Positions 11,359 through 32,960 are shown, counted from the stretch's first letter. The stretch is 64,000 nt of DNA from Pseudomonadales bacterium (GCA_022827245.1 JAJDTI010000076.1:13198-77197); one strand, 5' to 3'. The notes: a model not told the origin generated them from the sequence alone. Numbers and translations are program-made.

Positions 11359-11513
11359 TTCCCGGACTCCGCGACGGTCCGCTTCGGTCATTCACCGCAA
11401 GGCGAACTGATAGAATCCACGCGGCGAGGCAGCCGGGAATCCGGCCTGACTTGTCCCCTATCCGACACGCCGTTGAAGCGACGCCAGGCACCAACGGACC
11501 AGCGAGACACAGC

Positions 11514-12284
11514 ATGCTCCTGATCGACCCCTACCTGTGGCGATACGCCGCGTATCGGGCCTATCTCAACCTGATCGGCGAGGCGTCGCGCTATTACCTG
11601 GGTTGGCTGTGGTGGTTCCTCGAACCCATCGCCATGACCGCCGTTTTCTACTTTGTCTTCACCTATCTGCGGGGACCCAGGGCCGAGCACTTCCCCTACT
11701 TCCTGATCATCGGGGTGACCACATGGCTTTGGTTCAACAATGCCGTGGCGAACTCGACGGACAGTCTCATGGTGGCAAGGAGCATGATCGCCCAGATGCG
11801 GCTGCCGAAGCTGATGTTTCCCCTGACCGTTGTCATTTCCGCTTCCCTGAAACACGCGTTCGTCTTCTCCATCGTCCTCGTGGTCTCGGGACTCGTGCTC
11901 GGGGCCTCCGTCGCATGGGTGTACCTGCCCGTCCTGGTCGCCACGCAACTCCTGCTGATCCTGGCGGTCGGTTCCGCCGTCGCCCTGTGTTGCTGCTGGA
12001 TCCGCGACCTGCGCCTGATCGTGAGGTCGGGGCTGACCTTGCTGATGTTCTGCTCGGGCATCTTCTTTCCTATCGACATGATGCCCCCCGCCTTTCAGGA
12101 CGTGCTCCGACTCAATCCCATGGCGGTCCTCATAGAGGACTTCCGGACAGTGTTGTTGGGCGGGGTGGCGCCGGACCTCTCGAGATGCGCTGTCGTCGCC
12201 GGGCTGAGCATGCTCTTCCTGTACGCCATGAAGTGGGCTTACACGCGTTTCGACCTGACACTGACGCGACGGGTGATTGCCTGA
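11514..12284 (+). CDS. wzm: O-polysaccharide ABC-2 type exporter, permease
   Basis: ATG at 11514 inside track ORF 10917..12284. 256 aa with about 6 TM segments and an ABC-2 pattern. Immediately followed by the ATPase gene. Confidence 0.85.
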   Translation: MLLIDPYLWRYAAYRAYLNLIGEASRYYLGWLWWFLEPIAMTAVFYFVFTYLRGPRAEHFPYFLIIGVTTWLWFNNAVANSTDSLMVARSMIAQMRLPKLMFPLTVVISASLKHAFVFSIVLVVSGLVLGASVAWVYLPVLVATQLLLILAVGSAVALCCCWIRDLRLIVRSGLTLLMFCSGIFFPIDMMPPAFQDVLRLNPMAVLIEDFRTVLLGGVAPDLSRCAVVAGLSMLFLYAMKWAYTRFDLTLTRRVIA

Positions 12285-12961
12285 TGCGACTCCGGGGCGT
12301 CTCGGTCGTGTACAGCGACTATGGCTTTCTCTCGAACAAAAGGGGCGTCATTGCGTTGACGGACGTGTCGCTGGATGTGCACCGCGGAGACAAGCTCGGG
12401 ATCATCGGCCGCAACGGTGCGGGCAAGTCCACCCTGATGCGGGTGATGGCCGGCGTGCTGAGCCCAAACCGCGGGACGGTCGACTACGAGGGCATGTCAA
12501 GCGCGCTCCTGTCCCTGAACGCCGGCTTCGACGCCGACCTGTCGGGCGTACACAACGTCGTGATGCACGGCATGCTCATGGGGTTGTCGCGGAAGGAAGC
12601 CGCGACACGTGTCGATGCCGTCGTCGAGATGTCCGAACTCGGCGACGCCATCCATCGGCGCGTGTCCACCTATTCCTCGGGAATGCGGGCGCGTCTCTGC
12701 TTCTCGACCGCCATCAACCTCGACCCGGACGTGCTGCTCCTCGACGAGGTGTTCAGCGTGGGCGACGGCGAGTTCCGCGAGAAGTCCCGCCGCATCATGC
12801 TCGACCGCTTCGCGGCCGGGAAGGCCATCGTGCTCGTAACGCACGGCGTCCAGATGATCAGGCGCGTCTGCAACCGCGCAATCTGGCTGGACGACGGCAG
12901 GATACGGGCGCAGGGGCAGGTAGAGGACGTTGTGGCCGCGTATCAGAGGTCAGCGTCGTAG
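12284..12961 (+). CDS. wzt: O-polysaccharide ABC exporter ATP-binding protein; NBD only, no C-terminal carbohydrate-binding module
   Basis: ATG at 12284 overlaps the wzm TGA. 225 aa with Walker A 'GRNGAGKSTL', signature 'YSSGMRARL' and Walker B 'LLLDE'. The protein ends about 20 aa after the H-loop region. Confidence 0.88.
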   Translation: MRLRGVSVVYSDYGFLSNKRGVIALTDVSLDVHRGDKLGIIGRNGAGKSTLMRVMAGVLSPNRGTVDYEGMSSALLSLNAGFDADLSGVHNVVMHGMLMGLSRKEAATRVDAVVEMSELGDAIHRRVSTYSSGMRARLCFSTAINLDPDVLLLDEVFSVGDGEFREKSRRIMLDRFAAGKAIVLVTHGVQMIRRVCNRAIWLDDGRIRAQGQVEDVVAAYQRSAS

Positions 12962-13079
12962 CGTTGCCGGCGTCGCGGCGGCGACAGGCCAACTGCCTAA
13001 GCCGATCTTTGGACCTACGCCGCCCGCTTTCCGAAGCGGGCAGGTGGCGCGCTGTCCACAGACCACGAACCGGACAACG

Positions 13080-13830
13080 GAATCTTGAGGGAGAGCATCA
13101 CGTCGCCTCGTTTTGCCACGGCCAACTCTAAACGCCACCGCGCTGAGGTAGCCCAGTGCCGAGTGACCGCGTTTGCGGTGCTAGAGCGCCTCGATGAGGT
13201 CGAACACCGCCAAGCCCGACGCGGCACGCGGGAAACGCGCCGCGCTACCTCAAATCGCCTTCGAGTGTCGCGAAGAAGCTCTCGCATCGCGCGTTGTCAT
13301 CGCAGTCGCCTTCGCCGCCCATCGACAGCGTCATGGCGGCCCCAGCAGCGCTTGCCGAACGCGATCGAAGTGTATCGGGCGCCGTGAGCCGAGTGATGGA
13401 TGATGCCCCGCGCATCGTGCTGGCCCAGGCGCCATGTCCAGCGCTTCGAGGAGCGGGCCGCCGACCACCCGCGACCCCATCGACCGGCCCACCATGGGCC
13501 GTGAGTACACGTCGATCACCACGGCCAGAAACAGGCACCCTGCCAAAGCCGGAGCGTACGTCGCGCAGCAGGGGCCTGCGTCGCGAGTCCCGACATCTGT
13601 CCGAATGCCGCGTCGGCCTTCGCCACAAGTTGCCTCACCGGCGCCTTGGGCGACACCCGCGCGTCCGCCGCGACGGACCCGGCAACTGACCGCATGGTCC
13701 ACATCCCTTTGGTCCGAAGCGTCACGATCATCTCCTGGTCGTCTCGACACGCCGACTTCATGCCCACTTTCCTCCGGCGCCGCACTTCGAGTCCAGGCTC
13801 AGCGCGTTTGGACAAGGGCTTTGTGCTGTC
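13080..13830 (-). mobile_element. IS3-family transposase (OrfB/rve) remnant; multiple frameshifts and an internal stop; orfA largely missing
   Basis: Pieces of an rve integrase are spread over three minus-strand frames: 'LFLAVVIDVYSRPMVG(R)SMG', 'LSMGGEGDCDDNARCESFFATLEGDL', 'AVFDLIEAL*HRKRGHSALGYLSAVAF'. Boundaries are approximate. Confidence 0.7.
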
Positions 13831-13848
13831 CCGGCGATGCCAGTGCTT

Positions 13849-13857
13849 GCTAGAATA
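13849..13857 (+). promoter_or_regulatory. Possible extended -10 box TGCTAGAAT upstream of the methyltransferase/LicD pair
   Basis: TGnTAnnAT pattern read directly, about 190 bp upstream of the GTG at 14045, at the junction between the IS scar and the lower-GC block. No -35 element was assessed. Confidence 0.25.
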
Positions 13858-14044
13858 GTCGGCTCAAGGTCGCCTCCCACGCGAGCATGGCGTTGGGGCC
13901 GGGTGGAGCGCGGGGCGGTGTTCAAAGCCTCAGAGTTGATCCCTGCGGGGCGCACGATAGTTGTCCCCGGAGATGCGAGCAGCCGGCCCTGCAGCGGACA
14001 TGAGAGGCGTTCGTCCCATTTGGTGAGCAGTCGTTGGTACATCT

Positions 14045-14707
14045 GTGACCGAACAAATAAGCAAGTACTGGTCGCAATTCTATTCCGACCCCCATACGCT
14101 GCGTCCGACTCCGTTCGCGCGTTGCGTGGCTAAGGAGTTGACGGCGCCCACGCAGGTTGTGGACATTGGGTGTGGGAACGGGCGCGACTCACTATTCTTC
14201 GCTGGTCTGGGCCATCATGTGCTCGGCCTCGACGCGGCTGGTACAGCGATTGCCAGAAACCGCGAGGTTGCGCGCCAACGGGGCGTCGAAGGCGTCGCGT
14301 TCCAAGAGGTGGACCTCGGCGTCGGCGGCGGCTTCCACACCATCTTGAACCGCTTGTTGACTGGACCGGATGGCGTCGGCACCAAATCGCTCGCCGTTTA
14401 CGGTCGCTTTCTCCTGCATGCCGTCACCGAAGACGAAGAGGACACCGTACTTGCTGCTTTAGCGGCTAGTCTGCGGACCGGGGATCGCTGTTTTCTCGAA
14501 TTTCGGACGGACAAGGACCTTTCCTTGCGCAAACAGTTCCGCAGCCACTATCGTCGGTTCGTCAAACTCGACGAGTTTCTGGACAAGGTCCGCAGCGCGG
14601 GAGCACTCGATTGCCTCTATGCCGAGGAAGGCCAGGGCATGGCGAGATATGGAGACGAAGACCCCTTCGTTGCACGGGTCCACCTGGCGCCATTTCCGAA
14701 GCAGTGA
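14045..14707 (+). CDS. Class I SAM-dependent methyltransferase
   Basis: 220 aa, GTG start. Motif I 'VVDIGCGNGRDSLFFA' and post-I 'VLGLD'. Confidence 0.8.
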   Translation: MTEQISKYWSQFYSDPHTLRPTPFARCVAKELTAPTQVVDIGCGNGRDSLFFAGLGHHVLGLDAAGTAIARNREVARQRGVEGVAFQEVDLGVGGGFHTILNRLLTGPDGVGTKSLAVYGRFLLHAVTEDEEDTVLAALAASLRTGDRCFLEFRTDKDLSLRKQFRSHYRRFVKLDEFLDKVRSAGALDCLYAEEGQGMARYGDEDPFVARVHLAPFPKQ

Positions 14708-14770
14708 TCTGCTTTGGTGCGTCTGATCAGCGTAACGCCTCGGAAGATCTGGCCGACGGAGCAGCGACGC

Positions 14771-15718
14771 ATGACGATACTTGGTTTTGTGGAGAGTGTG
14801 TCCGCTAACGCGATCAAGGGTTGGTGCATCGACAGCTCGCACGACGGCGTGGTGGACGTTGAGTTGAGAGTCGGCGCCGTCTCCCTCGGACGCGTACATG
14901 CGGATCTCTATCGGCGAGACCTGCATGAGAAATGGGGCCGAACCGCCGGCGGATTTAGGTTTCCGATTTCCCCACGCCTCCTCTCTCTTCTCCCCCACAA
15001 GGAAAGCGTAGGGGCCTATGTTGACGGAAATCCCCTACGCTTTACGGTCAAGTGTGCTACTCACATCGAGAACCCTGAGGCCGCTGAGGCGGGCAAGCTC
15101 GCGCAACTGCTCGAGGACGGCTATGTCATCAGTCCCAAGTCCGGCGGCATCCATCGTCCGATTGGGGAACGATTGAGCCCGGGGCGTATATTCGACGCTA
15201 TCGCTCGGACCAACTCCCTGTTCGAGAGGCTATTCGCGAAGAACCTGTTCATCTGTTACGGGACGCTTCTCGGTTGTGTTCGGAGCGATGATTTCATTGC
15301 TCATGACGATGACGTCGACGTGTGTTTCCTGTCGGACGCGCGTAATGTCAACGCAGCCGCCGAGGAGTTCTCTGACATCATTAACGTCTTGCGAGCCGAG
15401 GGCGAGAAGGTCCAGTGGCCTGGCGGTGCGCACTTCCACTGGAACATGCTCGATGTGTTTATCGCCTGGTTCGAGGATGGCGTGCTCTACCTTTACAACG
15501 CTGGTGGAGAGTGCGAAGAGCGGGTCGTGCTACCGTTGCGACTTCGACGTTTCAAAGGGCGAGACGTCCTTGTCCCAAACCACCCGGAACAGTTCTTGGA
15601 GCTGATTTATGGGGCCAACTGGCGAACCCCGGACCCAATGTTCCAATGGCGGGTTGAGCCCGAGATACGACAGAACTTGCGACGCTTCTCGGACCGATTG
15701 TCTCAACTGTTGGAGTGA
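14771..15718 (+). CDS. LicD-family phosphotransferase (nucleotidyltransferase fold) with an N-terminal extra domain
   Basis: 'ICYGTLLGCVRSDDFIAHDDDVDVCF' matches the LicD/fukutin motif. ATG at 14771 is preceded by GGAG; the track ORF begins at an upstream TTG (14714). The transferred group cannot be inferred. Confidence 0.7.
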   Translation: MTILGFVESVSANAIKGWCIDSSHDGVVDVELRVGAVSLGRVHADLYRRDLHEKWGRTAGGFRFPISPRLLSLLPHKESVGAYVDGNPLRFTVKCATHIENPEAAEAGKLAQLLEDGYVISPKSGGIHRPIGERLSPGRIFDAIARTNSLFERLFAKNLFICYGTLLGCVRSDDFIAHDDDVDVCFLSDARNVNAAAEEFSDIINVLRAEGEKVQWPGGAHFHWNMLDVFIAWFEDGVLYLYNAGGECEERVVLPLRLRRFKGRDVLVPNHPEQFLELIYGANWRTPDPMFQWRVEPEIRQNLRRFSDRLSQLLE

Positions 15719-15759: not shown

Positions 15760-16755
15760 TCAACGGTCGAGACCCAAGTGCCGGCGAATCTCCCGAACCT
15801 GCTCATGCAGCTTGAAGACCTGAAGTTGTAGTACGTGGCGCTCGAAGTTATCCTGGCTGGCGGGTGACTGTGGGCTGGAGGTGCGTTTCGGGGGGAACAA
15901 CGGGCGCTTGACGCCCGGAAGGTACTTTCGACGAAAGCGCTCGTTACGTTGAGCATAAACGGACATGATGGCCTGGGCTTCTTCGTCCGAGAACAAAGAG
16001 GGGCCGTCCGAATCCTTGACGACCAGTTCGTGGGCCAGTTCGCGAACGCTTCGGTAGAAAGACTGATCGTGCGGTCCATCGAATAGGTGAGGGTTACCCT
16101 CGACCATCCGGCTGAGCATCGCATTCAGGCCCGGGTTGCGTTCACCGGGCAGCTCCAGCTCCTTCGGGTCCTGGCCGAGTACTTCACAGAAATCCGGAAA
16201 CACATCCCCACCGGCGAGGAGCTTGCGATCGTAGACGCGTGCGACGATCCGCTCCTCTCCGAACATGTTGGCCCAAGGCTCGATCACGCGCCACCAGTTC
16301 CCGCGAACACCAACGTTCCTGACCGCCCACGCAAGGAGGGAACCGCCGTGCTTGATGTCCCACTGCTGCCAGGACGACTCGAGGAGTTCGTCCTGTCGCC
16401 GAACATATAGGAGTATCCTGACGTGGAATCGGTCCTTCAGGTTCCCGAAGACCTCTTCAAAGCCATTCGGATTGGAGAGGTTTTCCGCTGACACAACCAC
16501 CGTGGACGCCTTAACGGCGTCCGCGGCGCCCTCGAGCAGGTCACCAAGTTCTGGAATCGGTTTCGCCCGACGTTCCTCGATACGGGCTTCGAAAAAGGGG
16601 CCGTGCGATCCGGTCACTTCGGAACGCGGCGTGAGATCAACTCCGGGAACCGCCACTCCTTTCAGGGCGAGTTCCCTGTGGTTCAGCCGCAGACCCATCT
16701 GGATCGCGGAACTGCCGCCTTTGGCACACCCGATGTGGACCAGGAGATCTTTCAC
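15760..16755 (-). CDS. Sulfotransferase-fold protein (putative)
   Basis: 331 aa, GTG start preceded by GAGGG. N-terminal 'LLVHIGCAKGGSSAIQ' resembles a 5'-PSB loop and 'ILLYVRRQDELLESSW' resembles the 3'-PB motif. This is weaker than the domain in 20640..24035. Confidence 0.45.
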   Translation of the reverse strand: MKDLLVHIGCAKGGSSAIQMGLRLNHRELALKGVAVPGVDLTPRSEVTGSHGPFFEARIEERRAKPIPELGDLLEGAADAVKASTVVVSAENLSNPNGFEEVFGNLKDRFHVRILLYVRRQDELLESSWQQWDIKHGGSLLAWAVRNVGVRGNWWRVIEPWANMFGEERIVARVYDRKLLAGGDVFPDFCEVLGQDPKELELPGERNPGLNAMLSRMVEGNPHLFDGPHDQSFYRSVRELAHELVVKDSDGPSLFSDEEAQAIMSVYAQRNERFRRKYLPGVKRPLFPPKRTSSPQSPASQDNFERHVLQLQVFKLHEQVREIRRHLGLDR

Positions 16756-16949: not shown

Positions 16950-17822
16950 CTACGCCAGACTCGTCGTAGACAAGTACTCGCTCAATCCGGCTTGCCAGGA
17001 CCTGGGGGCGCCAAACCTAACGGCGAGCTTACGTGTACTCAACACGCTGTATCGTGGCCTCATCGCCCGCGCCTGATAATCCTCGCTGCTACAGGGCGTC
17101 ACACGAGCCTCCACACCTGCCTGGGCAAGAATCTCGCGCGCGAACTCGTACCAAGTAGCACAACCATCATTTACAGCATGGTATGTCCCAACTTCACAAC
17201 GCTCCGACACCATTCGGAGCAACACTCGGGCGACATCGACGGTAGCCGTTGGCGACATCACCTGGTCATCGACCACCCTTACGTGCCCACGCTCTCGAGC
17301 CAAGCGCACTATCGTCTCCACGAAGTTACCGCCCTTCCCGCGTGCACCTCTCGCTCCGAACAGCGAGGCCACTCGAACCACCACGACGTCTCCGCAAGCG
17401 AGAGGCGCCAACGCTTCGCCCAACGCCTTGGATGCGCCATACACGTTGACCGGCGCAATCGGGTCGCCCTCCTGAAGGGGAGTGTTCCGGGCGCAGTCTC
17501 CGCCGAAAACGTAGTCGGTACTGATGTGTATGAAGCGCGCACCCTGGCGTTCACACGCCCGCGCCATTCGCTCAACCGCGTGCGCATTCACCAAGAATGC
17601 CAGTCCGGCGTTGTCCTCCACTTCGTCGGTCTTGTGATAGCCCGTGCAGTTGACCAGCACGTCAAAGCTCCTCTCGGCCAGCTGCTCCTCCAGCGCCGGC
17701 GTCGAGACGTCGAGGCGGTCCCGGCCCACGGGGACCAGGTCGAACGGCCCACCCGCATCGGCGTGCGCCTTGCGGAAGTCGTGTCCGAGCTGCCCATCGG
17801 GACCCAGGAGAAGGACTTTCAT
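16950..17822 (-). CDS. rfbD: dTDP-4-dehydrorhamnose reductase (RmlD family)
   Basis: ATG at 17822 inside track ORF 16950..18083 (MKVLLLGPDGQLG...). Has 'STDYVFGG' and 'NVYGASKALGE' (YxxxK). ATGA overlap with the upstream SDR gene. 290 aa. Confidence 0.8.
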   Translation of the reverse strand: MKVLLLGPDGQLGHDFRKAHADAGGPFDLVPVGRDRLDVSTPALEEQLAERSFDVLVNCTGYHKTDEVEDNAGLAFLVNAHAVERMARACERQGARFIHISTDYVFGGDCARNTPLQEGDPIAPVNVYGASKALGEALAPLACGDVVVVRVASLFGARGARGKGGNFVETIVRLARERGHVRVVDDQVMSPTATVDVARVLLRMVSERCEVGTYHAVNDGCATWYEFAREILAQAGVEARVTPCSSEDYQARAMRPRYSVLSTRKLAVRFGAPRSWQAGLSEYLSTTSLA

Positions 17823-18841
17823 ATCTCCACTATTCCCCCGTACATTTCCACGTCCCGAATCACCCTGTGCCAACGCACAAGTTCCTTGTACCAGTCGAGC
17901 GTGATGGTCTCCGGGGTGCGAGCCACGGTACCTCCCTGCAGCGCCTCGCAGACCTCCGCCACACCATCGGCCGCAGTCCACTCGGTACGGTAGCCAAGCG
18001 CCTCGATCTTGTCGAACGACACCCGGTAGCTCCGTTCGTCCGGATCGCCGTACCAGTCGATCATCACCTCCTTGGGTACGCACGAAGCCACAAGGTCCCC
18101 CAGCGGACCGATCTGCCAGGTATCGGCGATCGACCCGACATTGAATATCTCTCCGTTCACCTCCCGCGGGTCCGTCTCAAGCACGCGGATCTGCGCCCGC
18201 GCAGTGTCGCGGACATGGATCATCGGCCGCCACTGTGTCCCGTCGCGCATCAGAGGCAGCTTCCCCGTCCTCCATGCCCCGTAGGTCATACCGTTGATCG
18301 CGAGGTCGAAGCGCATGCGCGGGGAGAGTCCGAACACCGTAGCCTGGCGCAGGACGACCACGCAGAAGGTCTCGTCCGCGAGACCGAGCACGCCACGTTC
18401 CGCCAACTCGTTGGCGCGGGCGTAGGTCGTCAACGGCCTCGGTGGAGCCGTTTCGTCCGCCACGACGCCAGGTTCCTGAAACCCGTAGATGCTGCACGAC
18501 GAAGGTAGGACATAGCGCGCTACTCCCGCACTCTTGGCCAATCGCGCGCAACGGACCCGACTCTTGTGGTTGATGGCCATCGTCGCTTGCTGGAAGAACT
18601 CTCCAGACGGATCGTTCGATATGGCCACGAGATCGACGACCGCATTCACGCCGTCGAAGTGCGTTGGCTCCAACCTGCGACTGTCCTCGACCACGACCTC
18701 AAGCCGAGGATGCGGCGCAAGCAAACCCCGGCCAAAGAAGAAGCGGTCAACCGCGCGGACCTCATACCCCGCATCAAGCAGCATTGGGGTCAGAACCGTG
18801 CCGATGTATCCCCCAGCCCCAGTGACCAGAACCTTCATCAC
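17819..18841 (-). CDS. Extended SDR (NAD-dependent epimerase/dehydratase family), atypical; not a canonical RmlB
   Basis: 'VLVTGAGGYIGTVL' Rossmann motif and 'SSCSIYG'. The expected YxxxK reads 'YARAN'. 340 aa. Confidence 0.7.
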   Translation of the reverse strand: MMKVLVTGAGGYIGTVLTPMLLDAGYEVRAVDRFFFGRGLLAPHPRLEVVVEDSRRLEPTHFDGVNAVVDLVAISNDPSGEFFQQATMAINHKSRVRCARLAKSAGVARYVLPSSCSIYGFQEPGVVADETAPPRPLTTYARANELAERGVLGLADETFCVVVLRQATVFGLSPRMRFDLAINGMTYGAWRTGKLPLMRDGTQWRPMIHVRDTARAQIRVLETDPREVNGEIFNVGSIADTWQIGPLGDLVASCVPKEVMIDWYGDPDERSYRVSFDKIEALGYRTEWTAADGVAEVCEALQGGTVARTPETITLDWYKELVRWHRVIRDVEMYGGIVEI

Positions 18842-18871: not shown

Positions 18872-19447
18872 CTACTCCGCCGCCCTCGCAAGGTACACGA
18901 AAGGCGTCTCGAACGTCGCCAGCCGCGGCTGCGCGCGATCCTTGTCGGAGAGCACGACCTCGCCCTCCGGTATCGGCCAGTTGATCCCCAGTGCCTGATC
19001 ATTCCACAGGATGCCGCGATCATGGTCGGGGGCATAGTAGTCGCTTACCTTGTAGACGACCTCGGTGTCAGGCTCGAGCGTCATCAGGCCGTGCGCGAAC
19101 CCCGGCGGCACGAGAATCTGGTTCCATTCCTTGGCGGACAGCGTCGCTGTGACGTGGCGCCCGAACGTCGGCGAACCACCACGCAGGTCAACCGCCACGT
19201 CGAAAACGGACCCCCGGACCACTCTGACCAGCTTAGCCTGCGCGAACGGCGGGGTCTGGAAGTGCAGTCCGCGCATGGTGCCGCGTTCGGCGGAGAGAGA
19301 GTGATTGTCCTGCACGAACTCGATGTCGATACCCACCTCTCCAAATCGCTTCCTGTTGTAGACCTCCGAAAAGAAGCCACGATGGTCCCCATGCCTCACG
19401 AGAGACAGGACCTTCACGTCCGGAATGGAAAGTGACTCTATCCGCAC
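18872..19447 (-). CDS. rfbC: dTDP-4-dehydrorhamnose 3,5-epimerase
   Basis: 'HGDHRGFFSEVY', 'RGLHFQ', 'KLVRVVRGSVFDVAVDLR', 'YKVSDYYAPDHDRGILWND'. 191 aa, GTG start. Confidence 0.92.
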   Translation of the reverse strand: MRIESLSIPDVKVLSLVRHGDHRGFFSEVYNRKRFGEVGIDIEFVQDNHSLSAERGTMRGLHFQTPPFAQAKLVRVVRGSVFDVAVDLRGGSPTFGRHVTATLSAKEWNQILVPPGFAHGLMTLEPDTEVVYKVSDYYAPDHDRGILWNDQALGINWPIPEGEVVLSDKDRAQPRLATFETPFVYLARAAE

Positions 19448-19451
19448 GACG

Positions 19452-20624
19452 TCAAACCCCCCGCTCCGAAGGCCTTGCCAGCGTCATCTCTCCGCGAACG
19501 GCGGCCAAACGCTCGAGTTCATCTTCGAGCTGCCGCATCTTCTCCATCCCGTCGAATTCCCGGCGCGCGGCCGACGCCAGGCCACCGCGCCAGCCGCCGT
19601 CGCCATCACCGAGCACCTTTGGTAACAGCCCCACAACCCGTTCTGCATCGGGCGAGCCCGTGACCGCGTATCCAAGGCGAGCCAGAGTCCCCGCGCTGGC
19701 ACCCGTATTCGTGAACGCTATTGCCCTCTTTCCGAGCAACAGCGCCTCCGCAACGACCAGCGGGTTGGGATCCTCGCGGGAAGTGAGCACGAAGGCGTCG
19801 AGTTGCCGCAGGTATGCGTACGGATTGTCCACCAAGCCGGTTACGTAAAAGTTCGGTAACGCCAGTCGCTCGAACCGCTCGAGGGTCGGGCCGTTGTCTT
19901 CCGTCTCCGGCGGTCTCCAGGGTCCGATCCAAAGGAAGTCCTGGCCGGGTAGTCGTGTCGCGACATCAAAGAAAATGTCGGCGCCCTTCCGGGGTTGCGC
20001 GAGCCCGCACATCCCCACAACGTGCCGCGCGCGTCCATCGCCATCCGCAAGCGGCTCTCCCCTGGCGTTCACACCCGGAGGCACAGCAGCAGTGCTGCGT
20101 TCGAGCACCGTCTCGACGTCGAGGAAAATACCCAGATCCAGGTGGTGGTACACGGAAGTAGTCGTAAGATCCTCGATGTCCTCAATGGCCTGACGAGACG
20201 CACCGATCAGCACGTCCGCCCAACGCAACACACGCGGCGTGCAAACACTCGACAGCAGCCCGGGCAGGCTGTCGCGCATCTCGTGTGTGTGCAACGCAAC
20301 CAGCGCTCCCGCACGGGCTCCCGCCTCACACCATTCTCCCGAGGCGACGGAGTTCACATACAGCACGTCCGGGCGGAGTTCCTCCATGATCGTCATAGCC
20401 CTCTCAACGCGCTCGCGGTAGGTAAGGTCCGACACCAAGTGGCTGGTCTCTAGTGAGCGATAGCCCTCCCGCAGTCTGGCGTACCGGGGAAAGTCGATCA
20501 ACGGGCCATTTCGCTTGACCAGCAGCGTCGTGTCGTGGCGCTCCGCAAAGAACGCCGCGATGTCGAATCCGATTCGCGGCGCGCCAGTCAGACTCGCTTC
20601 ATGACAGACTACGCAGATGCGCAC
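19452..20624 (-). CDS. Glycosyltransferase family 4
   Basis: 390 aa, GTG start. 'SREDPNPLVVAEALLLGKRAIAF' E-x7-E-like region. Confidence 0.75.
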   Translation of the reverse strand: MRICVVCHEASLTGAPRIGFDIAAFFAERHDTTLLVKRNGPLIDFPRYARLREGYRSLETSHLVSDLTYRERVERAMTIMEELRPDVLYVNSVASGEWCEAGARAGALVALHTHEMRDSLPGLLSSVCTPRVLRWADVLIGASRQAIEDIEDLTTTSVYHHLDLGIFLDVETVLERSTAAVPPGVNARGEPLADGDGRARHVVGMCGLAQPRKGADIFFDVATRLPGQDFLWIGPWRPPETEDNGPTLERFERLALPNFYVTGLVDNPYAYLRQLDAFVLTSREDPNPLVVAEALLLGKRAIAFTNTGASAGTLARLGYAVTGSPDAERVVGLLPKVLGDGDGGWRGGLASAARREFDGMEKMRQLEDELERLAAVRGEMTLARPSERGV

Positions 20625-20639: not shown

Positions 20640-23600
20640 CTACCGCCACTCGAAGCGGTAGCCCATGTCTCGAGCTACGGCGCCGAACACGCGCTCGAAA
20701 GCGTGGGCCCACGCACCATCGGGATTGCCCTCTGCCGTGACCGCGTCGCTGCGTTCGAACGCGACGCCCTCCGCGGCGTCGAAGACGCGGCCGAGCAGAT
20801 CGCCACGGAGGAGCATCATCGTACCCGACAGAAACTCCACATCGTCCGCACACTCAACGATGCCGAACTTGCTCAGAAGGGCATCGTACTTGTCACGATT
20901 GGCGTTGATCTCCGTGTACCGGCACTGCGCGGAACCGACAATGCCGACCGTCTGATCCTCGAGCATGATCCGCAGGTTATCGGCTGCGCACTCCTGTGTC
21001 CCCAGAAGCGGCTCGAGCAGTCTGCGACGCCACCGCTGCACTTCGCCCTCGGCCATGTGCGGGCTCTTCTTCGTATGAACGAGGCAGAAGACCCGATAGT
21101 CCGCGGTCCGCAGGTGGCGCAGTAGATGGAAGTGTCCCCCGACGTCCCGACCGATGTTCTCACTGATGTAGACGCGCGCCTCCGGAAACACATTGCGAAT
21201 ACGCCCGAGCAGTTCCGGGTCGAACGTCTCGTCCACCAGATTGACGTAGAGGTCGTAACTGTCGCGCGACAGATTCCCGAGATAGCCGGCCAACTCGTCC
21301 CACAGCTCCGGGTAGTACACGTGCGCCAGCACGCACAGCGGCGGCCGCGTCCCTTCCGCCGAGGCGGCAAGCTCAGCGTTCGCTTCGTTCTCCGCGCGGG
21401 CTTCCGCGGGATCCGTCCGCAACGTGTGCAGACGCGGCTCGAAGCGCCCGTGGCACATGTAGTGGCGCAGCGCCTCGAGCGGAGACTGTTCGGCCAGATA
21501 GCGAAGGTCCGGATACAGCCGGATGTACTCCGAGGCATCGAAGTCCAGCGGGATCTCCCGCGGATTCTGGCAAAGCTCGAACGCGAAGGCTGCCCTCGAA
21601 CCAGCTCGCTCTCCGTTTCCCGGGCAAAGCAACGCGAGTTCGCGGTCGCTTAGTCCGGCCAGTTCAGGGTACATGACGCGGGAGAACCCGGCATCGAAGG
21701 CATGCGCTTCTTCCGCGGCCAGGTCGAGTCGGTGCAGCCCCTCGATGACCGGATCGACTTCACCCGCTTTCAGGTCGACCGGCCATCGTCCCTCTATCGC
21801 CCCGTGTTGCAGGTAGTGCGCCAGCGGATCTATGCCCGCAGTCCGGATGTCCGGATAGGTCGCCAAGTACCAGTCGGGGTCGAACAGGATGGGGACATCT
21901 GTCCCATTCACGCGCGCTTCGTAGTTGAGGTCCGCGAGGTCGAGCCACCCCGACGGCATGTATCTCGCCGGTGCTGGACGCTCGGCGGAACGCGCGAGCG
22001 GGCCCAGGAATGCAAACGAGCCCAAGGCGGTGCGTTTCAGCCGTGCCCGAGCCGACCGAGGCAACGGCAACAGCCGCCACCCAACCCGCAGAGTCCCTCG
22101 CGCCACCGAGGTGATACCCCGGGCCACGGCGCGTCCGGCTCCGAGGAGCAGCGCCTTCCCCAAGCGCAGAGGCGTCGTCAATCGCCATGAACTCGAGCGG
22201 TAAACTGCGGCCAGCTCCTGATCCCGCCGGTCGACCACCTCGTGCAGGCCATCGATCTGGTTCTGCCTTCCCTCGGCCGTCTGGCGCAGCGCATCGCGTT
22301 CCTCGACCGCGACCATGAGTGTCTCGATCTGCCCGTCGCGATCCGTCGCCTGCCGATCCAGCGCATCGATACGCCCGTCGCGATCGGCCAGCGCATCCTT
22401 CAGTGCCGTGATCTCGCCGTCGCGGCCGGCAATCTCGCGATCACGATCCGCCACCTGGAGATCGAGCGCATCGATCCGCCCGTCCCGGTCCGCGAGCGCT
22501 TCTTTCATTGCCGCGATCTCGCCGTCGCGGCCGGCCATCTCGCGATCGCGATCAGCCGCCTGCCGGTCCAGCGCATCGATACGTCCATCCCGGTCCGCCA
22601 GCGCATCCTTCAACGCCGTGATCTCGCCGTCGTGGCCGGCCACCACGTGTTGCAGGGCGTCGATCTCTCGATCTCGATCCGAGAGGGTGGTGCCGAGCCG
22701 GTCCAGTTCGCGGTCCTTCGCCTGCACCACACCGTCAAGCTGTGCGGCGTGGTCGTCGCGATCCTCCACCGCTCGGTTCAGGGAGTCTATCTGGCGTTCG
22801 CGATCAGCGACAACGCCCCGTAGCGTCTCGATCTCGCGACCGCGGTCAGCGGTCTGCCGATCAAGCGCATCGATGCGTCCGTCCCGATCCGCGAGCGCCT
22901 CCTTCAATGCCGTGATCTCGCCGTCGCGGCCGCCCACCACGTGCTGCAGCGCATCGATCTCCCGATCTCGATCCGAGACGGTGGTACCGAGCCTGTCCAG
23001 TTCCTGGTCTTTCACCTGCACCACACCGTCAAGGTAGGCGACGTTTTCGTCACGGTCCCCGATTGCCCGGTTCAGCGAGTCGATCTGCCCTTCGCGGTCA
23101 GCGACAACCTCGTGCAACGCGCGGACTTCCCTCTCGAGGTCGCGGTTTCGCTGACCCGCACGCATGCCCGTGACCAGTGGGCGGGCGAAAGCCCCACCGG
23201 CCTCGTCGAAGGCGGACCGCACGGCATCGAGCGCCACCCTGTCCGACTCCCGGACCTCGCCGTGGGTCCAGCGGTCAACGATCTCGAAGGTGGACGTGAC
23301 CCACTCGGACACGTCGGGACGCTCCAGGACAGCCGCGTCATCGGCGATCTGGTGTCGCGCGGACGGCTCCAGACGCTCCTCGATCTCGACGCGCGCCGAA
23401 GTCGACTGCCGCGGCCACGACAGCGCCAGGTCCCGGGCAACCGCCCCGGCCACGGCCTCCCAGTCCCGCAGGAGATCCTCGAAACGCACGAAGCTCCGCC
23501 CATGGTCGCGCGACGCCGCTTCGGCGTCGAGGACATGGCGCAGCCAGAGCAGCAGTCCCACCGACGGATCGATGGCATCCCGATCCTGCAACGAGCCGGC

Positions 23601-24035
23601 AACCTCCAACGGGTTGCGGATCGGCAACGCGACGCGGACATCGGCTCCGAAATCAGCCAGGACACTTGTCCAGAAAGGGAGCAGCCTGGCGATCCGGGGA
23701 TCCTTCAGGACAAACAGCGGCTCGCCTTCGAACTCCGCTTCGAGCACCGAGACCGCTCGCTCGCGGAAGTCGCCGGCGACCGGCGACGCGTACCAGCCCG
23801 GGTTGAAGGGTTCCCAATCGTCCCAACTCGACCCGGCCGACTCCAGCAACGCGTCGTTGAGGGAGGCGACCTCCTCCGACTCCCAGTACCCGGAGACGTT
23901 GTACTCGTTTGCGGGCATGAGGGTCTTCGGCAGTCCGCAGCCCAGGCTACCCAGCACTCGAGTGAGCGCCGACGTGCCGCTCCGGTGCATGCCGGCAACG
24001 ACTATGGCTACGCTGTCCAAGTCTCGACCATCCAA
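20640..24035 (-). CDS. Three-part fusion protein: N-terminal sulfotransferase domain, repeat-built coiled coil, C-terminal RgpF (rhamnan synthesis F)-like glycosyltransferase domain
   Basis: 1131 aa; the start is a TTG and is uncertain. N-terminus: 'VAIVVAGMHRSGTSALT' (5'-PSB) and 'PIRNPLEVAGS' (3'-PB). Middle: about 310 aa of DRDxxIxxL heptad repeats ending in 'SSSWRLTTPLR'. Then three 'YPD...PL.HY..HG..EGR' repeats. C-terminus: 'LCVLAHVYYPELW..SENIGRDVGGHFHLL..CLVHTKKSPH..WRRRLLEPLLG'. Confidence 0.75.
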   Translation of the reverse strand: MDGRDLDSVAIVVAGMHRSGTSALTRVLGSLGCGLPKTLMPANEYNVSGYWESEEVASLNDALLESAGSSWDDWEPFNPGWYASPVAGDFRERAVSVLEAEFEGEPLFVLKDPRIARLLPFWTSVLADFGADVRVALPIRNPLEVAGSLQDRDAIDPSVGLLLWLRHVLDAEAASRDHGRSFVRFEDLLRDWEAVAGAVARDLALSWPRQSTSARVEIEERLEPSARHQIADDAAVLERPDVSEWVTSTFEIVDRWTHGEVRESDRVALDAVRSAFDEAGGAFARPLVTGMRAGQRNRDLEREVRALHEVVADREGQIDSLNRAIGDRDENVAYLDGVVQVKDQELDRLGTTVSDRDREIDALQHVVGGRDGEITALKEALADRDGRIDALDRQTADRGREIETLRGVVADRERQIDSLNRAVEDRDDHAAQLDGVVQAKDRELDRLGTTLSDRDREIDALQHVVAGHDGEITALKDALADRDGRIDALDRQAADRDREMAGRDGEIAAMKEALADRDGRIDALDLQVADRDREIAGRDGEITALKDALADRDGRIDALDRQATDRDGQIETLMVAVEERDALRQTAEGRQNQIDGLHEVVDRRDQELAAVYRSSSWRLTTPLRLGKALLLGAGRAVARGITSVARGTLRVGWRLLPLPRSARARLKRTALGSFAFLGPLARSAERPAPARYMPSGWLDLADLNYEARVNGTDVPILFDPDWYLATYPDIRTAGIDPLAHYLQHGAIEGRWPVDLKAGEVDPVIEGLHRLDLAAEEAHAFDAGFSRVMYPELAGLSDRELALLCPGNGERAGSRAAFAFELCQNPREIPLDFDASEYIRLYPDLRYLAEQSPLEALRHYMCHGRFEPRLHTLRTDPAEARAENEANAELAASAEGTRPPLCVLAHVYYPELWDELAGYLGNLSRDSYDLYVNLVDETFDPELLGRIRNVFPEARVYISENIGRDVGGHFHLLRHLRTADYRVFCLVHTKKSPHMAEGEVQRWRRRLLEPLLGTQECAADNLRIMLEDQTVGIVGSAQCRYTEINANRDKYDALLSKFGIVECADDVEFLSGTMMLLRGDLLGRVFDAAEGVAFERSDAVTAEGNPDGAWAHAFERVFGAVARDMGYRFEWR
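22350..23147 (-). repeat. In-frame tandem repeats inside 20640..24035: 3 x 105 bp (35 aa) and 2 x 294 bp (98 aa)
   Basis: Unit starts were read at 22350, 22455 and 22560 (105-bp period) and at 22560 and 22854 (294-bp period). The 105-bp unit recurs inside each 294-bp unit. More degenerate copies flank the array down to about 22240. Confidence 0.9.
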
Positions 24036-24062: not shown

Positions 24063-24701
24063 CTATACCGGCCCTCCTTCGAGACGGAAGCTCGTCGTCA
24101 CGTAATCGACGAGCTGCGTGACGCAGCACTCGACATCACTCTTTGTCGTGTCGATCACGAGTGAGGGCTTCTCCGGCGGCTCGTAGACGTCGTCCACCGC
24201 CGTAAAGTTCGCGATCTCCCCGGCCCGGGCCTTGCGGTAAAGCCCCTTGGGGTCACGCTGCTCGCAGGTGGCCAGGTCGGCCCGCACGTAGACCTCGTGG
24301 AAGCGTCCGGGGGCCGCGTCCCGGGCAGCGGCGCGATCTGCCCGGTATGGAGAGATGAAGGCGGCGATGCACAGGAAACCGGCATAGGCGAACAACGCCG
24401 CCACCTCGCCCGCGCGGCGGATGTTCTCGCCACGGTCCTTCCGTGAAAACCCGAGGTCTGCGTTCAGTCCGTAACGCACGTTGTCGCCGTCGAGCACATA
24501 AACCTGCACACCGTCGCGAAACAGGCGCTCCTCCAAGGCGAATGCGAGCGTGGACTTGCCCGCGCCCGAGAGGCCCGTCAACCACAGCACACCTCCCAGA
24601 TGGGCGTTCCTGCGTTCCCGATCACAGAGCGTGATCCGGTGCTCCACGGGAGCGATGTTGCGTGGGTCCATGGGCGGCGGGCGTGCGGCAAGGCCGCGCA
24701 T
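24063..24701 (-). CDS. cysC: Adenylyl-sulfate (APS) kinase, stand-alone
   Basis: 'LWLTGLSGAGKSTLA', 'LDGDNVRYGLNADLGFS', 'AFISPYRADR', 'RDPKGLYRKARAGEIANFT'. An alternative ATG lies at 24671. Sits 27 bp upstream of the 1131-aa gene. Confidence 0.9.
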   Translation of the reverse strand: MRGLAARPPPMDPRNIAPVEHRITLCDRERRNAHLGGVLWLTGLSGAGKSTLAFALEERLFRDGVQVYVLDGDNVRYGLNADLGFSRKDRGENIRRAGEVAALFAYAGFLCIAAFISPYRADRAAARDAAPGRFHEVYVRADLATCEQRDPKGLYRKARAGEIANFTAVDDVYEPPEKPSLVIDTTKSDVECCVTQLVDYVTTSFRLEGGPV

Positions 24702-30124: not shown

Positions 30125-32056
30125 TCAGTGCATGAACCCCCTGTCGCGCAGCAGCTCGAGGACCCGCCCGGCACAGACGTCCACGTCGAGCTCCTCCGTG
30201 TCCATGACGAGGTCCGGCGAGCCCGGCTCCTCGAAGGTGGCGTTCACGCCGGGGAAGCTCGGGATCTCGCCGCGCTCCGCCGCCGCGTAGAGGCCCTCGT
30301 CGTCGCGTTTCTTCAACGCGTCGAGGGAGGCGGTCAGGAACACTTCCAGGAACCGGTCGCCCCCCACGCTGTCGCGCATGCGCTCGCGCACGGCCTCGTG
30401 AGGCACGACGAACGCCGTCAGGCAGATGAGGCCGGCATCGTTCATGAGACGCGCCGTCTCGGCCGCGCGGCGCAGATTCTCCGAACGGTCGTCCGCCGAG
30501 AACCCGAGGTCGCGGCTCATCCCCAGGCGGAAGTTCTGCCCGTCCAGCACGGTGGCCAGGCGCCCGAGATCGAAGAGCTTGCGTTCGAGGGCCCGGGCCA
30601 CCGCGGTCTTGCCGCTCTTCGACAGGCCCGTGAACAGCACGGTGACCGGCGACTGCCCGAGGCGGAGCGCCCGTTCGTCCGCCGTCACCGCGGAAGCGGA
30701 CGCGACGAACGCCCCGTGGGGGGCCTCGTCCCAGTGGGGGCCGCCCACCACGCCTCCCCCGGCCGCGATCATCCCCGCGCCGACGGTCACGTTCGAGATG
30801 CGGTCGATGACGATGAACGCGCCCATGCCCGGGTTGTCCTCGTAGGCATCGTGGACGATGGGCTCGGCCAGCACGAAGCGCACCTGGCCGATCTCGTTGA
30901 GCGCGAGTTCCGGCGCCGGGCCCTGCTCGAGGGTGTTGACGTCGATGCGGTGGCGCAGCGTCTGCACCCTGCCGAAGACCTGGCGCGCGCCATGCTTGAC
31001 GATGTACTGCCGTCCCGGGACCATCGCCTCCTCGGCCAGCCACACGAGGGTGGCGTCGAACGTGTCCGAGATGTGCGCCAGCCGGTCCGTGCCCGAGAGG
31101 ACGTCCCCCCGCCCGACGTCGATCTCGTCGGCCAGGGTCAGCGTGACCGCCATGGGCGCGAACGCCTCGTCGAGGTCGCCATCCATGGTCACGACGCGCT
31201 CGACCGTCGTTGCGAGACCCGACGGCAGCACGCGAACCCGGTCCCCGGGCCGGACGACGCCGCTCGCCACGGTGCCGCTGTAGCCGCGGAACGAAGCGTC
31301 CGGCCGGTTCACCCGCTGCACCGGCATGCGGAAGCTCCGGAAGCCGCGGTCGGCCGCGACATGGACGTGTTCGAGCAGGTGCATCAGCGACGCGCCCTGG
31401 TACCAGGGCATGTTCACGGACTGCTCGACCACGTTGTCGCCGTGCTTCGCGGAGATGGGCACGAAGGTCAGGTCGTCGACGGCCAGACGCGACACGAAGG
31501 CGTCGTAGTCGCCACAGATGGCGTCGAACACGGCCTCGTCGTAGCCCACGGTGTCCATCTTGTTCACCGCGACGATGAGGTGGCGGATGCCCACCAGCCG
31601 CGCGAGGAACGTGTGTCGCTTCGTCTGCGTCAGCACCCCGTGCGCCGCGTCGATCAGGATGACCGCCACGTCGCAGGTGGACGCCCCGGTGACCATGTTG
31701 CGCGTGTACTGCTCGTGACCGGGCGTGTCGGCGATGATGAATTTGCGGCGGTCCGTCGAGAAATACCGATAGGCGACATCGATCGTGATGCCCTGCTCGC
31801 GTTCCGCCTGCAGGCCGTCCACGAGCAGCGCGAGGTCCATTTCATCCCCGGCGCTCCCGGAGGCCTTGCTGTCCCGCTTGATGGCGGCGAGCTGGTCCTC
31901 GTAGATGAGCCGGGAGTCGTGCAGCAGGCGGCCGATCAGCGTGCTCTTGCCGTCGTCGACGGATCCGCACGTCAGGAAGCGGAGGATCTCCTTGCGCTCG
32001 TGGCGGGCCAGGTACGCGAGGACGTCGTCGCCGATGGGGTCGGTGTCGCCCGCCAT
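30125..32056 (-). CDS. cysN: Sulfate adenylyltransferase subunit 1 fused to an APS-kinase-like domain (CysN-CysC/NodQ type)
   Basis: ATG at 32056 inside track ORF 30125..32617. GTPase motifs 'GSVDDGKSTLIGRLL', 'DTPGHEQY', 'NKMD'. The C-terminal kinase-like domain has 'FTGLSKSGKTAVA', 'LDGQNFRLGMSRDLGFS', 'AFVVPHEAVR'. 643 aa. Confidence 0.9.
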   Translation of the reverse strand: MAGDTDPIGDDVLAYLARHERKEILRFLTCGSVDDGKSTLIGRLLHDSRLIYEDQLAAIKRDSKASGSAGDEMDLALLVDGLQAEREQGITIDVAYRYFSTDRRKFIIADTPGHEQYTRNMVTGASTCDVAVILIDAAHGVLTQTKRHTFLARLVGIRHLIVAVNKMDTVGYDEAVFDAICGDYDAFVSRLAVDDLTFVPISAKHGDNVVEQSVNMPWYQGASLMHLLEHVHVAADRGFRSFRMPVQRVNRPDASFRGYSGTVASGVVRPGDRVRVLPSGLATTVERVVTMDGDLDEAFAPMAVTLTLADEIDVGRGDVLSGTDRLAHISDTFDATLVWLAEEAMVPGRQYIVKHGARQVFGRVQTLRHRIDVNTLEQGPAPELALNEIGQVRFVLAEPIVHDAYEDNPGMGAFIVIDRISNVTVGAGMIAAGGGVVGGPHWDEAPHGAFVASASAVTADERALRLGQSPVTVLFTGLSKSGKTAVARALERKLFDLGRLATVLDGQNFRLGMSRDLGFSADDRSENLRRAAETARLMNDAGLICLTAFVVPHEAVRERMRDSVGGDRFLEVFLTASLDALKKRDDEGLYAAAERGEIPSFPGVNATFEEPGSPDLVMDTEELDVDVCAGRVLELLRDRGFMH

Positions 32057-32057
32057 G

Positions 32058-32960
32058 TCAAAAATAGCCTTCCCGCTTTTTCTGTTCCATCGACCCGGCG
32101 GCGTCGAAGTCGATGAGCCGTCCCTGGCGCTCCGAGTACCTGGCGCGCAGCATCTCCTCGATGATCTCGGGCAGCGTCGCGGCGGTGGACTCGATGGCCC
32201 CGGACAGCGGGTAGCAGCCGAGCGTGCGGAAGCGGACCATCCGCATCTCCGGTTCCTCGCCGGGCTCGAGCGGCATGCGGTCGTCGTCGACCATGATCCA
32301 GGTGCCGTCGCGGCGCACGACCGGACGCCGGGCGGCGAAGTACAGCGGGACGATCTCGATACCTTCCAGCAGGATGTACTGCCAGACGTCGAGTTCGGTC
32401 CAGTTCGACAGGGGGAAGACGCGTACTTCCTCCCCGCGGTTGATGTTGCCGTTGTAGAGGTTCCAGAGTTCCGGACGCTGGCTGCGCGGCTCCCAGCGGT
32501 GATTCCCGTCGCGCACCGAGTAGACCCGTTCCTTGGCGCGGGAGCGCTCCTCGTCGCGCCGCGCGCCGCCGAACGCCGCGTCGAACCCGTGCCTGTCGAG
32601 CGCTTCGAGCAGGGCATGGGTCTTCATGATGTCCGTGTACTTCCTGCTGCCGTACGTGAACGGCGTGACCCCGTTGCGCACGCCCTCCTCGTTCGTGTGC
32701 ACGATGAGGTCGAGGTCCAGCTCCCGCGCCTTGCGGTCCCGGAAGGCGATCATGTCGCGGAACTTCCAGGTGGTGTCGACGTGCATCAGCGGGAACGGCA
32801 GCCGGCCGGGGTAGAAGGCCTTGCGGGCGAGGTGCAGCAGCACCGAGGAGTCCTTGCCGATGGAATAGAGCATCACCGGCCGTTCGAACTCCGCGGCGAC
32901 CTCGCGGATGATGTGGATGCTCTCCGCCTCGAGCTGCTTGATGTGGGTCAGGCCGGCCAT
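32058..32960 (-). CDS. cysD: Sulfate adenylyltransferase subunit 2
   Basis: 300 aa. '[15 protein letters not shown]' PP-loop and C-terminus '...[10 protein letters not shown]'. Confidence 0.95.

Follow-up and report, generated by a model that had tools for sequence, protein, structure and literature searches.

A sulfotransferase, coiled-coil and glycosyltransferase fusion protein as a candidate sulfate-capping molecular ruler for an ABC-exported glycan

Here we report that a gene located at positions 20640..24035 (minus strand) of a 64,000-nucleotide stretch of DNA from a Pseudomonadales bacterium (GCA_022827245.1, JAJDTI010000076.1:13198-77197; hereafter, the window) encodes a fusion protein of 1131 amino acids (aa) with five parts in the following order: a sulfotransferase (ST), a coiled coil, an SSSWRLTTPLR motif with a cationic helix, a set of repeats and an RgpF-family glycosyltransferase (GT) domain of the GT-A fold. 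We regard these domain assignments as very secure. We propose, with a probability of roughly one half, that this protein acts as a chain-terminating molecular ruler with a role in polymerisation, which would sulfate a glycan at its non-reducing end. An original prediction had pointed to such a function for an O-polysaccharide exported by an ATP-binding cassette (ABC) transporter. Its coordinates and 1131-codon frame were exact, every peptide that it quoted was found in the protein and all of its architectural statements were upheld by profile hidden Markov model (HMM), structure-prediction and comparative tests. Its interpretation stood with regard to architecture and genetic context, but one class-defining feature, a cap-binding carbohydrate-binding module (CBM) on the transporter component Wzt, was missing.

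Results

The N-terminal domain presents the fold and motifs of PAPS-dependent sulfotransferases

The first 290 aa (23166..24035, minus strand) constituted a domain with the fold of sulfotransferases that depend on 3′-phosphoadenosine 5′-phosphosulfate (PAPS). When this part was searched directly against the PDB nothing meaningful was obtained, and the best match of its family profile was SULT4A1, with an E-value of only 0.21. The C-terminal part produced nothing relevant by either route, so that these searches revealed no resemblance in sequence between the two ends of the protein and any solved structure. Therefore, we compared the end domains at the level of the fold. An AlphaFold2 (AF2) model of the N-terminal domain, built from 14 family sequences, reached a predicted local distance difference test score (pLDDT) of 88.1 and a predicted template modelling score of 0.88. 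When this model was compared with the PDB using Foldseek, all 14 matches at E<=1e-3 were PAPS-dependent sulfotransferases, and sulfotransferases accounted for almost all of the top 50. The matches included human and tick tyrosylprotein sulfotransferases (TPST1/2) and the ST domains of CurM and of an olefin synthase (OLS), with top E-values of 2e-6 to 2e-4, moderate template modelling scores (0.43-0.51) and sequence identities of 13-18%.

The PAPS-dependent sulfotransferase superfamily is defined by a 5′-phosphosulfate-binding (5′-PSB) and a 3′-phosphate-binding (3′-PB) motif (PMC10951654). Both signatures, already noted in the original prediction, occupied the expected structural positions in the AF2 model. 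The strand formed by aa 8-13, the P-loop GMHRSGTS (aa 15-22) and the helix at aa 18-30 made up the 5′-PSB strand-loop-helix, while the strand at aa 131-139 led to RNPLEVAGS (aa 140-148), which opened the helix at aa 142-153 as in the 3′-PB motif. Residues H17-S22 (HRSGTS) were the same in all 14 close relatives and all 57 distant ones. Likewise, the RNP..V..S pattern, including R140, P142 and S148, as well as W51-E52-S53 (the WES motif, aa 51-53) and K111-D112-P113-R114 (within LKDPR, aa 110-114), did not vary in close or distant relatives. The catalytic residues of TPST2 are R78, E99 and K158 (PMC10951654), which the invariant R18, E52 and K111 of the fusion protein appear to parallel, making them candidate catalytic residues; Glu and Lys are 59 residues apart in each of the two proteins. 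In the profile-HMM search, Sulfotransfer_3 (PF13469) aligned over its whole profile to aa 11-208 (E=5.5e-4) but scored 20.7 bits, below the gathering cut-off of 27. Many homologues of the fusion protein carry a precomputed match to the same family.

The open reading frame starts with TTG and its GC content at the three codon positions (0.74/0.46/0.79) was typical of the coding DNA of this genome. NCBI holds a 100%-identical protein (P0001) annotated from Met16, with 1116 aa. Such a start (window 23991-24035, minus strand) would cost the first beta-strand before the P-loop, and the longer N-terminus is the correct one because homologues show it. A homologue from Cereibacter sphaeroides (WP_017140449.1) is likewise annotated from 'MHRSGTS', and this mis-call of the start site looks recurrent in the family.

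The coiled coil changes its length in whole heptads

The sulfotransferase domain was followed by a coiled-coil stalk of about 46 heptads (aa 291-612; 22200..23165, minus strand), identified by its heptad register, periodicity, family matches and tandem repeats. It was slightly longer than the segment of about 310 aa, ending in SSSWRLTTPLR, that had been anticipated. A single unbroken register ran from aa 291 to 583 (about 42 heptads) and, after one shift of +3, the repeat went on to around residue 621. The hydrophobic power was 8.5 at a period of 3.5 and 1.13 at the harmonic of 7, and did not exceed 0.16 at the other periods tested. Many coiled-coil families from Pfam and NCBIfam matched the region. 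At the DNA level, it contained a tandem repeat of 105 nt (5 heptads; 2.9 copies, 22336-22642) and another of 294 nt (14 heptads; 1.9 copies, 22537-23108), which are recent duplications. As a coiled coil rises about 0.15 nm per residue, a fully helical stalk would measure about 48 nm. We also observed a super-repeat of 14 residues, 'EIxxLxx xVxDRDG', with an Arg at the d position of every second heptad and that heptad closing in Asp-Gly, an unusual core pattern.

A search with the full-length protein retrieved 1843 matches, the best 120 of which were used for the family comparisons. These proteins ranged from 779 to 1518 aa and none had a functional name. The N-terminal, middle and C-terminal modules were kept in the same order in all 120, with N-domain identities of 52-84%, while the spacer between the end modules varied from 104 to 626 aa (about 15-93 nm). 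As a proxy for coil length, we used the distance between two conserved tryptophans flanking the coil, which ranged from 148 to 670 residues (n=121 proteins). This distance fell into one modulo-7 class in 82 of the 121 proteins (68%; chi-square p=2e-60). Moduli 2-6, 8, 9 and 11 gave no comparable signal, modulus 10 reached only p=0.004, and 14 and 21 scored as multiples of 7. Furthermore, among 181 pairs with N-domain identity >=90%, the coil was unequal in length in 168, and in 137 of these the difference was an exact multiple of 7. For example, the flanking domains of P0002 and P0005 were 100% and 99.6% identical and their coils differed by 12 heptads.

Repeat collapse in short-read metagenomes was rejected as the sole cause of this variation, since 13 chromosome- or Mb-scale assemblies contained 11 distinct coil lengths, 10 of the 13 falling in the same modulo-7 class. 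Mis-assembly is therefore not the whole story. These results show that the coiled coil is continuous and that its length shifts fast, in register-preserving steps, between two conserved ends. The variation between otherwise identical alleles suggests that length itself is a trait under selection.

The C-terminal half combines a putative membrane anchor with an RgpF-like domain

Beyond the coil, the SSSWRLTTPLR motif and an arginine-rich amphipathic helix occupied aa 613-690 (21966..22199, minus strand). This segment had a net charge of +14 over 77 residues and a hydrophobic moment of up to 0.75, compared with a maximum of 0.63 elsewhere in the protein, and contained no transmembrane segment. 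In the family alignment (A2), residues S3, W4, R5, P9 and R11 of the motif were invariant. From its hydrophobic moment and conservation, we propose that the segment is a predicted peripheral membrane anchor and docking element; the membrane anchor of WbdD is likewise peripheral and amphipathic.

Three repeats of the FD..Y...YPD......DPL.HY...G..EGR type were located by sequence and alignment at aa 691-880 (21396..21965, minus strand). The first and third fitted the YPD..PL.HY pattern previously described, but the second was degenerate in this protein and intact in homologues. No Pfam family matched these repeats or the preceding motif and helix, even at E<=10.

The last domain (aa 898-1131 plus the stop codon; 20640..21344, minus strand) was RgpF-like, as had been anticipated. 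It matched PF05045 well above threshold (E=4e-20; 72.4 bits against a cut-off of 25), the alignment covering profile positions 271-503 of 503, that is, the C-terminal half of the family and not its full length. In the predicted structure, the matched part was a complete GT-A-like domain of alternating beta/alpha elements, with pLDDT values of 65-90 within the RgpF-like part and 67 for the C-terminal model overall. Its best Foldseek matches in the PDB were all GT-A enzymes: PcManGT, SpsA, hyaluronan synthase (HAS), K4CP and GtrB. Many polar residues were invariant, which argues for an active enzyme. Altogether, the WbbB-like order of a modifying enzyme, a coiled coil and a membrane-proximal GT proved to be real by HMM, fold and comparative tests, and was strengthened by the heptad-quantised coil length found throughout the family.

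The gene is flanked by an APS kinase gene and a GT4 gene in a conserved context

The adenylyl-sulfate (APS) kinase gene cysC (24063..24701, minus strand; APS_kinase E=6e-63, NCBIfam 250 bits against 163) was located directly upstream of the fusion gene, its stop codon lying 28 nt before the start of the latter. Directly downstream was a GT4-family glycosyltransferase (Glyco_trans_1_4; 19452..20624, minus strand), which is the probable polymerase partner of the fusion protein. The window also encoded the ABC-2 permease Wzm (256 aa; 11514-12284, plus strand) and Wzt (225 aa; 12284-12961, plus strand), the latter consisting of a nucleotide-binding domain (NBD) only.

To place this arrangement in context, 19 related loci were compared, all of them from metagenome-assembled genomes (MAGs) of uncultured Pseudomonadales, 'Ca. 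Azotimanducaceae' or unclassified gammaproteobacteria. The fusion gene homologue had cysC directly upstream in 11 of these loci, two more having it elsewhere in the locus, and GT4 directly downstream in 17. The rml and wzt/wzm genes were usually nearby, with wzt present in 13 of the 19. A member of the 90%-identity cluster, from an independent assembly, showed the same ACT-cysC-fusion gene-GT4-rmlC order. In the eight loci that shared the same flank (L001-L008), the housekeeping genes were 89-100% identical to those of the window, whereas cysC showed 74-85% identity in these loci and 67-70% in five further ones; the other cluster genes showed about 45-86%. Because cysC is less conserved than the flanking housekeeping genes, it must be part of the variable glycan cluster.

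The Wzt sequences of the 13 related loci carrying the gene all stopped <=27 aa past the NBD. The best NCBIfam matches of Wzt were the CBM-less Wzt/RfbE of O2a-type galactan and TagH. Thus, were the fusion protein a terminator, cap gating of export would probably be absent, in contrast to the prototypes.

In one related locus (L016; OZ242179.1, a chromosome-level MAG, around 8542-11560), the open frame encoded 613 aa, and the N-domain and the C-terminal part lay in separate frames. This split may correspond to natural WbdD-like and GT proteins, to a pseudogene or to a frameshift error in the repeat.

The sulfotransferase domain belongs to a large family with fused and split formats

An exhaustive search with the N-domain yielded 18,594 representative clusters at E<=1e-3, of which 4,846 remained at E<=1e-30. 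In the best 150 clusters the domain was almost always N-terminal, in proteins of 304-2179 aa. The C-terminal partners in 57 sampled proteins included GT2 (14), GT2_3 (12), GT1/GT4 (9), RgpF (6), WbsX (4), TOD1-like (2) and TPR (2) domains. Relatives in cultured bacteria included plasmid-borne proteins that were 45-49% identical and annotated as 'sulfotransferase', a label that RefSeq gives to the Cereibacter and Phaeobacter proteins; the family also reached cultured Paracoccus and Azospirillum.

Plasmid pB of Cereibacter sphaeroides 2.4.1 encodes the stand-alone protein WP_017140449.1, in which the ST is joined to a coil of about 170 aa, with SSTSWKVTRPIR at the C-terminus. Two genes away lies a separate protein, WP_017140450.1, which is annotated as 'rhamnan synthesis F family' and has the DP..HY repeat at its N-terminus as well as RgpF motifs. 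In Phaeobacter sp. G2, an ST-coil-SWK protein adjoins glf, a GT of 1221 aa, a short ABC ATPase of 217 aa and two further sulfotransferases. The post-coil motif of the fusion protein is the C-terminus of the stand-alone ST-coil proteins of both Cereibacter and Phaeobacter. This coexistence of split and fused formats mirrors that of the split WbdD/WbdA and the fused WbbB or O7 ORF6.

Other genes of the window

The remaining neighbours that had been named, namely wzm/wzt, waaL and the rhamnose genes, were confirmed by Pfam and NCBIfam. The waaL candidate was a polytopic membrane protein with a Wzy_C domain of the O-antigen ligase/WaaL family (about 5278-6489, plus strand; PF04932 E=4e-17, 62.8 bits against 31.7) and at least eight hydrophobic segments. 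NCBIfam equivalogs, in addition to Pfam, supported manC (7841-9274, plus strand), rmlA (9271-10146, plus strand), rmlD (about 16950-17822, minus strand) and rmlC (18872-19447, minus strand), and Pfam identified a second GT4 glycosyltransferase (10174-11358, plus strand). No recognisable copy of rmlB was found in the cluster. A short-chain dehydrogenase/reductase (SDR) epimerase/dehydratase assigned by Pfam (17819-18841, minus strand) was considered as RmlB and obtained no support from RmlB models; it was weakly similar to GalE and HpnA, and showed 71-86% identity in the 12 related loci where it adjoins rmlC.

An S-adenosylmethionine methyltransferase (14045-14707, plus strand) and a LicD-family phosphotransferase-like protein (14714-15718, plus strand) were also assigned by Pfam. 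The two genes occurred as a pair in seven related loci, and their products may equip this glycan with another (phospho-)substituent. About 1 kb without an intact gene (12961-14045) separated wzt from the methyltransferase gene. Here, the glycan cluster was split by a decayed IS3-like transposase remnant (about 13245-13750, minus strand) with frameshifted fragments, among them the transposase/integrase peptides 'VIDVYSRPMVGRSMG' and 'NARCESFFATLEGDLR'.

A protein of 331 aa (15760..16755, minus strand) had no match in Pfam or NCBIfam and belonged to a small family without a name (51 matches). When the profile of this family was compared with the PDB, it found SULT sulfotransferases only (E 0.03-0.7), aligned at the 3′-PB motif. 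At the N-terminus the family showed the invariant pattern H-x-G-x-x-K-x-G-S, and it also had the motif YVRRQDELLES. A relationship with the N-domain of the fusion protein as a paralogue was rejected (hhalign probability 0.13). Judging from its profile matches, the 331-aa protein is probably a second, free-standing sulfotransferase of an undescribed family. It was present in about 5 of 20 loci (the window and four of the 19 related ones), whereas cysC tracks the fusion gene.

The GC content dipped to 0.59-0.65 across the 10-22 kb stretch holding the fusion gene, compared with about 0.70 in the flanks. Past cysC, the window contained housekeeping genes (an ACT-domain protein, a class II aminoacyl-tRNA synthetase and cysNC/cysD). 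The operon of cysD and a cysN/cysC fusion (30125-32960, minus strand) lay about 6 kb from the stand-alone cysC, the genome thus having two APS-kinase domains. The left end of the window (356-3118, minus strand) carried a regulator of the LuxR family (189 aa) and a STAND/AAA ATPase of 700 aa that has a MalT-like TPR region, both unrelated to the finding.

Discussion

The data presented here suggest a mechanism in which the fusion protein would control the length of a rhamnose-containing glycan that is built on undecaprenyl diphosphate and exported by the Wzm/Wzt ABC transporter. The cationic amphipathic helix (aa 613-690) would anchor the protein at the membrane, on its cytoplasmic side. There, the RgpF-type GT-A domain and the adjacent GT4 would lengthen the chain at its non-reducing end, while the coiled coil would hold the PAPS-dependent sulfotransferase off the membrane. 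The growing tip would be sulfated on its terminal residue only once the chain reaches the stalk-mounted domain, and this sulfation would stop further glycosylation, fixing the chain length. PAPS would be supplied via the adjacent cysC. Unlike in E. coli O9a or Klebsiella O12, export would probably not be gated by recognition of the cap.

Several observations weigh against this proposal. A sulfate-terminated bacterial glycan was not found in the searched literature, and we know of none. The PF13469 score of the protein itself is under the curated threshold, and the confidence of the C-terminal model is moderate (pLDDT 67). Repeat mis-assembly could account for some of the length differences seen among proteins from metagenomes. 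Heptad quantisation is proof of a coiled coil, but not of a ruler. All characterised capped systems have a Wzt with a C-terminal, cap-recognising CBM (PMC11231755), a module that Wzt lacks in the window and in all 13 related loci with wzt. Finally, Cobetia-type marine gammaproteobacteria carry rhamnose 2-sulfate (Rha2S) in every repeat of a polymer that is exported by an ABC system, with PAPS genes encoded in the cluster (PMC11766843).

Since internal rhamnose sulfation combined with ABC export is thereby documented, decoration is a credible rival. The sulfotransferase might modify the polymer internally, either throughout or in a membrane-distal zone, with the coil serving mainly as an oligomerisation scaffold or as a spacer for a multi-enzyme complex, and with coupling to a CBM-less transporter determining the length, as it does in Klebsiella O2a. 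The Wzt found here is CBM-less and closest to the O2a-type galactan Wzt/RfbE, and O2a-type systems use no terminator (PMC11231755). However, with a stalk of some 48 nm, and of about 15 to 93 nm across the family, membrane-proximal residues would be out of the enzyme's reach, which would make it ill-suited to sulfating every repeat unit. We know of no decorating sulfotransferase with such a stalk-mounted layout. In addition, the order of the modules is exactly that of proven terminators, coil length differs between otherwise identical alleles in a way that suggests selection on length, and the probable free-standing 331-aa sulfotransferase could handle internal sulfation, leaving the terminus to the stalk-mounted enzyme. 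Taking both sides into account, we consider decoration less likely than capping, though it is the main alternative and a serious one.

The ruler might also be correct in its mechanism and differ in its product, with the N-domain sulfating a polymer of the capsule type, an O-glycan attached to protein or a glycolipid instead of a lipopolysaccharide O-antigen. The Wzy_C protein weakly matches O-oligosaccharyltransferase (TfpM) and 'O-glycosylation ligase' models and not the WaaL equivalog, its gene is about 1.3 kb outside the manC-cysC block of some 17 kb, and Wzt resembles TagH as well. These features are countered by the Wzy_C domain scoring above the Pfam threshold and by the combination of Wzm/Wzt, rml genes and a ligase, which is the classic set for ABC-dependent O-antigens. 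We find such a product improbable, and it would alter the name of the glycan and not the mechanism of the fusion protein. Least probable by far is that the N-domain is a degenerate P-loop module that binds nucleotides for regulation, or that it transfers another group, because the modest Pfam score (20.7 against 27 bits), profile match (E=0.21) and fold similarities (0.43-0.51) are outweighed by the invariance of both PAPS-binding motifs and of the candidate catalytic Glu and Lys in divergent relatives, by significant fold matches that are all sulfotransferases, by the many homologues passing PF13469 in precomputed annotation, by the dedicated APS kinase gene adjacent in 11 of 19 loci and by the RefSeq naming of the Cereibacter and Phaeobacter relatives.

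Regarding novelty, the original prediction had stated that a sulfate cap coupled to a ruler was not described. Nothing contrary appeared in the searchable literature, in which no bacterial sulfotransferase was tied to a coiled-coil ruler; a bioinformatic survey of terminator chemistries published in 2019 (Mann, Kimber & Whitfield, Glycobiology 29:822) lies outside that coverage and may list candidates. Coiled coils and O-antigens are both absent from a review on polysaccharide sulfotransferases that appeared in 2024. If the chain-terminating ruler is confirmed, a sulfate cap would be a new termination chemistry and would give the surface glycan a strongly anionic outer end, with a bearing on host, phage and mineral interactions. 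It would also make ruler-based termination separable from CBM-gated export. The hypothesis is directly testable, since the family reaches cultured, genetically tractable bacteria (Cereibacter sphaeroides 2.4.1, Paracoccus, Azospirillum and Phaeobacter), and natural alleles differing only in heptad number offer a ready-made experiment on coil length versus polymer length. The family of the N-domain is a large one, with about 18,600 representative clusters and many different GT partners. We tentatively suggest, well short of an even chance, that there is a large class of sulfation-stop rulers without cap-gated export, in which a coil made of near-perfect DNA repeats would act as a fast-evolving length dial, whole-heptad changes retuning chain length within marine and host-associated populations.

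Comparison with known systems

The individual domains have relatives outside the ruler class. The N-domain shares with sulfotransferases of the TPST, CurM-ST and NodH type (PF13469) the fold, the R-x-G-T/S motif of the 5′-PSB, the R...S of the 3′-PB and the candidate Glu and Lys. The acceptors of those enzymes are tyrosine, a polyketide and a Nod factor, whereas that of the fusion protein is likely a glycan and, in contrast to those enzymes, its N-domain shares one polypeptide with a long coiled coil and a GT. The C-terminal domain resembles RgpF of Streptococcus mutans (PF05045), with a family match above threshold and rml genes in the cluster, but it comprises only the C-terminal half of that family (271-503) and its rhamnosyltransferase activity is a prediction. 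At the level of the cluster, those of marine gammaproteobacteria such as Cobetia marina KMM 1449 also bring together, in one locus, genes for rhamnose and mannose precursors, PAPS genes, sulfotransferases and an ABC exporter. They belong to the Kps type of capsule system, in which every repeat unit is sulfated, and no coiled-coil sulfotransferase is described in the paper on them (PMC11766843).

Characterised coiled-coil terminators add methyl, methyl-phosphate, beta-Kdo or alpha-Kdo groups (Kdo, 3-deoxy-D-manno-octulosonic acid) (PMC11231755). Among them, WbbB of Raoultella terrigena and Klebsiella pneumoniae O12 also contains, in one polypeptide, an N-terminal terminator, a coiled-coil ruler and a C-terminal GT, and acts on a rhamnose-containing polymer in an ABC-transporter-dependent pathway (PMC11231755). 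Its terminator is a GT99 beta-Kdo transferase, in contrast to a sulfotransferase, and it has two polymerase GT modules, where the fusion protein has one RgpF-type GT-A domain and a separate, conserved GT4 neighbour. Moreover, the O12 Wzt carries a cap-recognising CBM and the Wzt described here has none.

WbdD (E. coli O9a and K. pneumoniae O3 and O5) and ORF6 of K. pneumoniae O7 resemble the fusion protein in having a non-glycosyl cap enzyme at the coil's distal end and, at the proximal end, a membrane-associating amphipathic region together with a site of polymerase recruitment or fusion. The cap enzyme of these proteins is a methyltransferase with or without a kinase, adding methyl or phosphate, while the fusion protein would transfer sulfate from PAPS using an unrelated catalytic fold, and the export partner here is CBM-less. 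The GT modules of O7 ORF6 are fused C-terminally, as in the fusion protein, and the stand-alone ST-coil-SWR proteins of Cereibacter and Phaeobacter match the WbdD format. Altogether, of the features that characterise the WbdD/WbbB class, the cap-recognising CBM on Wzt is absent from the window and the 13 related loci, and the fusion protein possesses the extended coiled coil, the distal modifying enzyme with the proximal polymerase, and wzm/wzt alongside. Relative to coiled-coil terminators, what would be new is a different terminating chemistry, a fused GT of the RgpF type and a CBM-less transporter.

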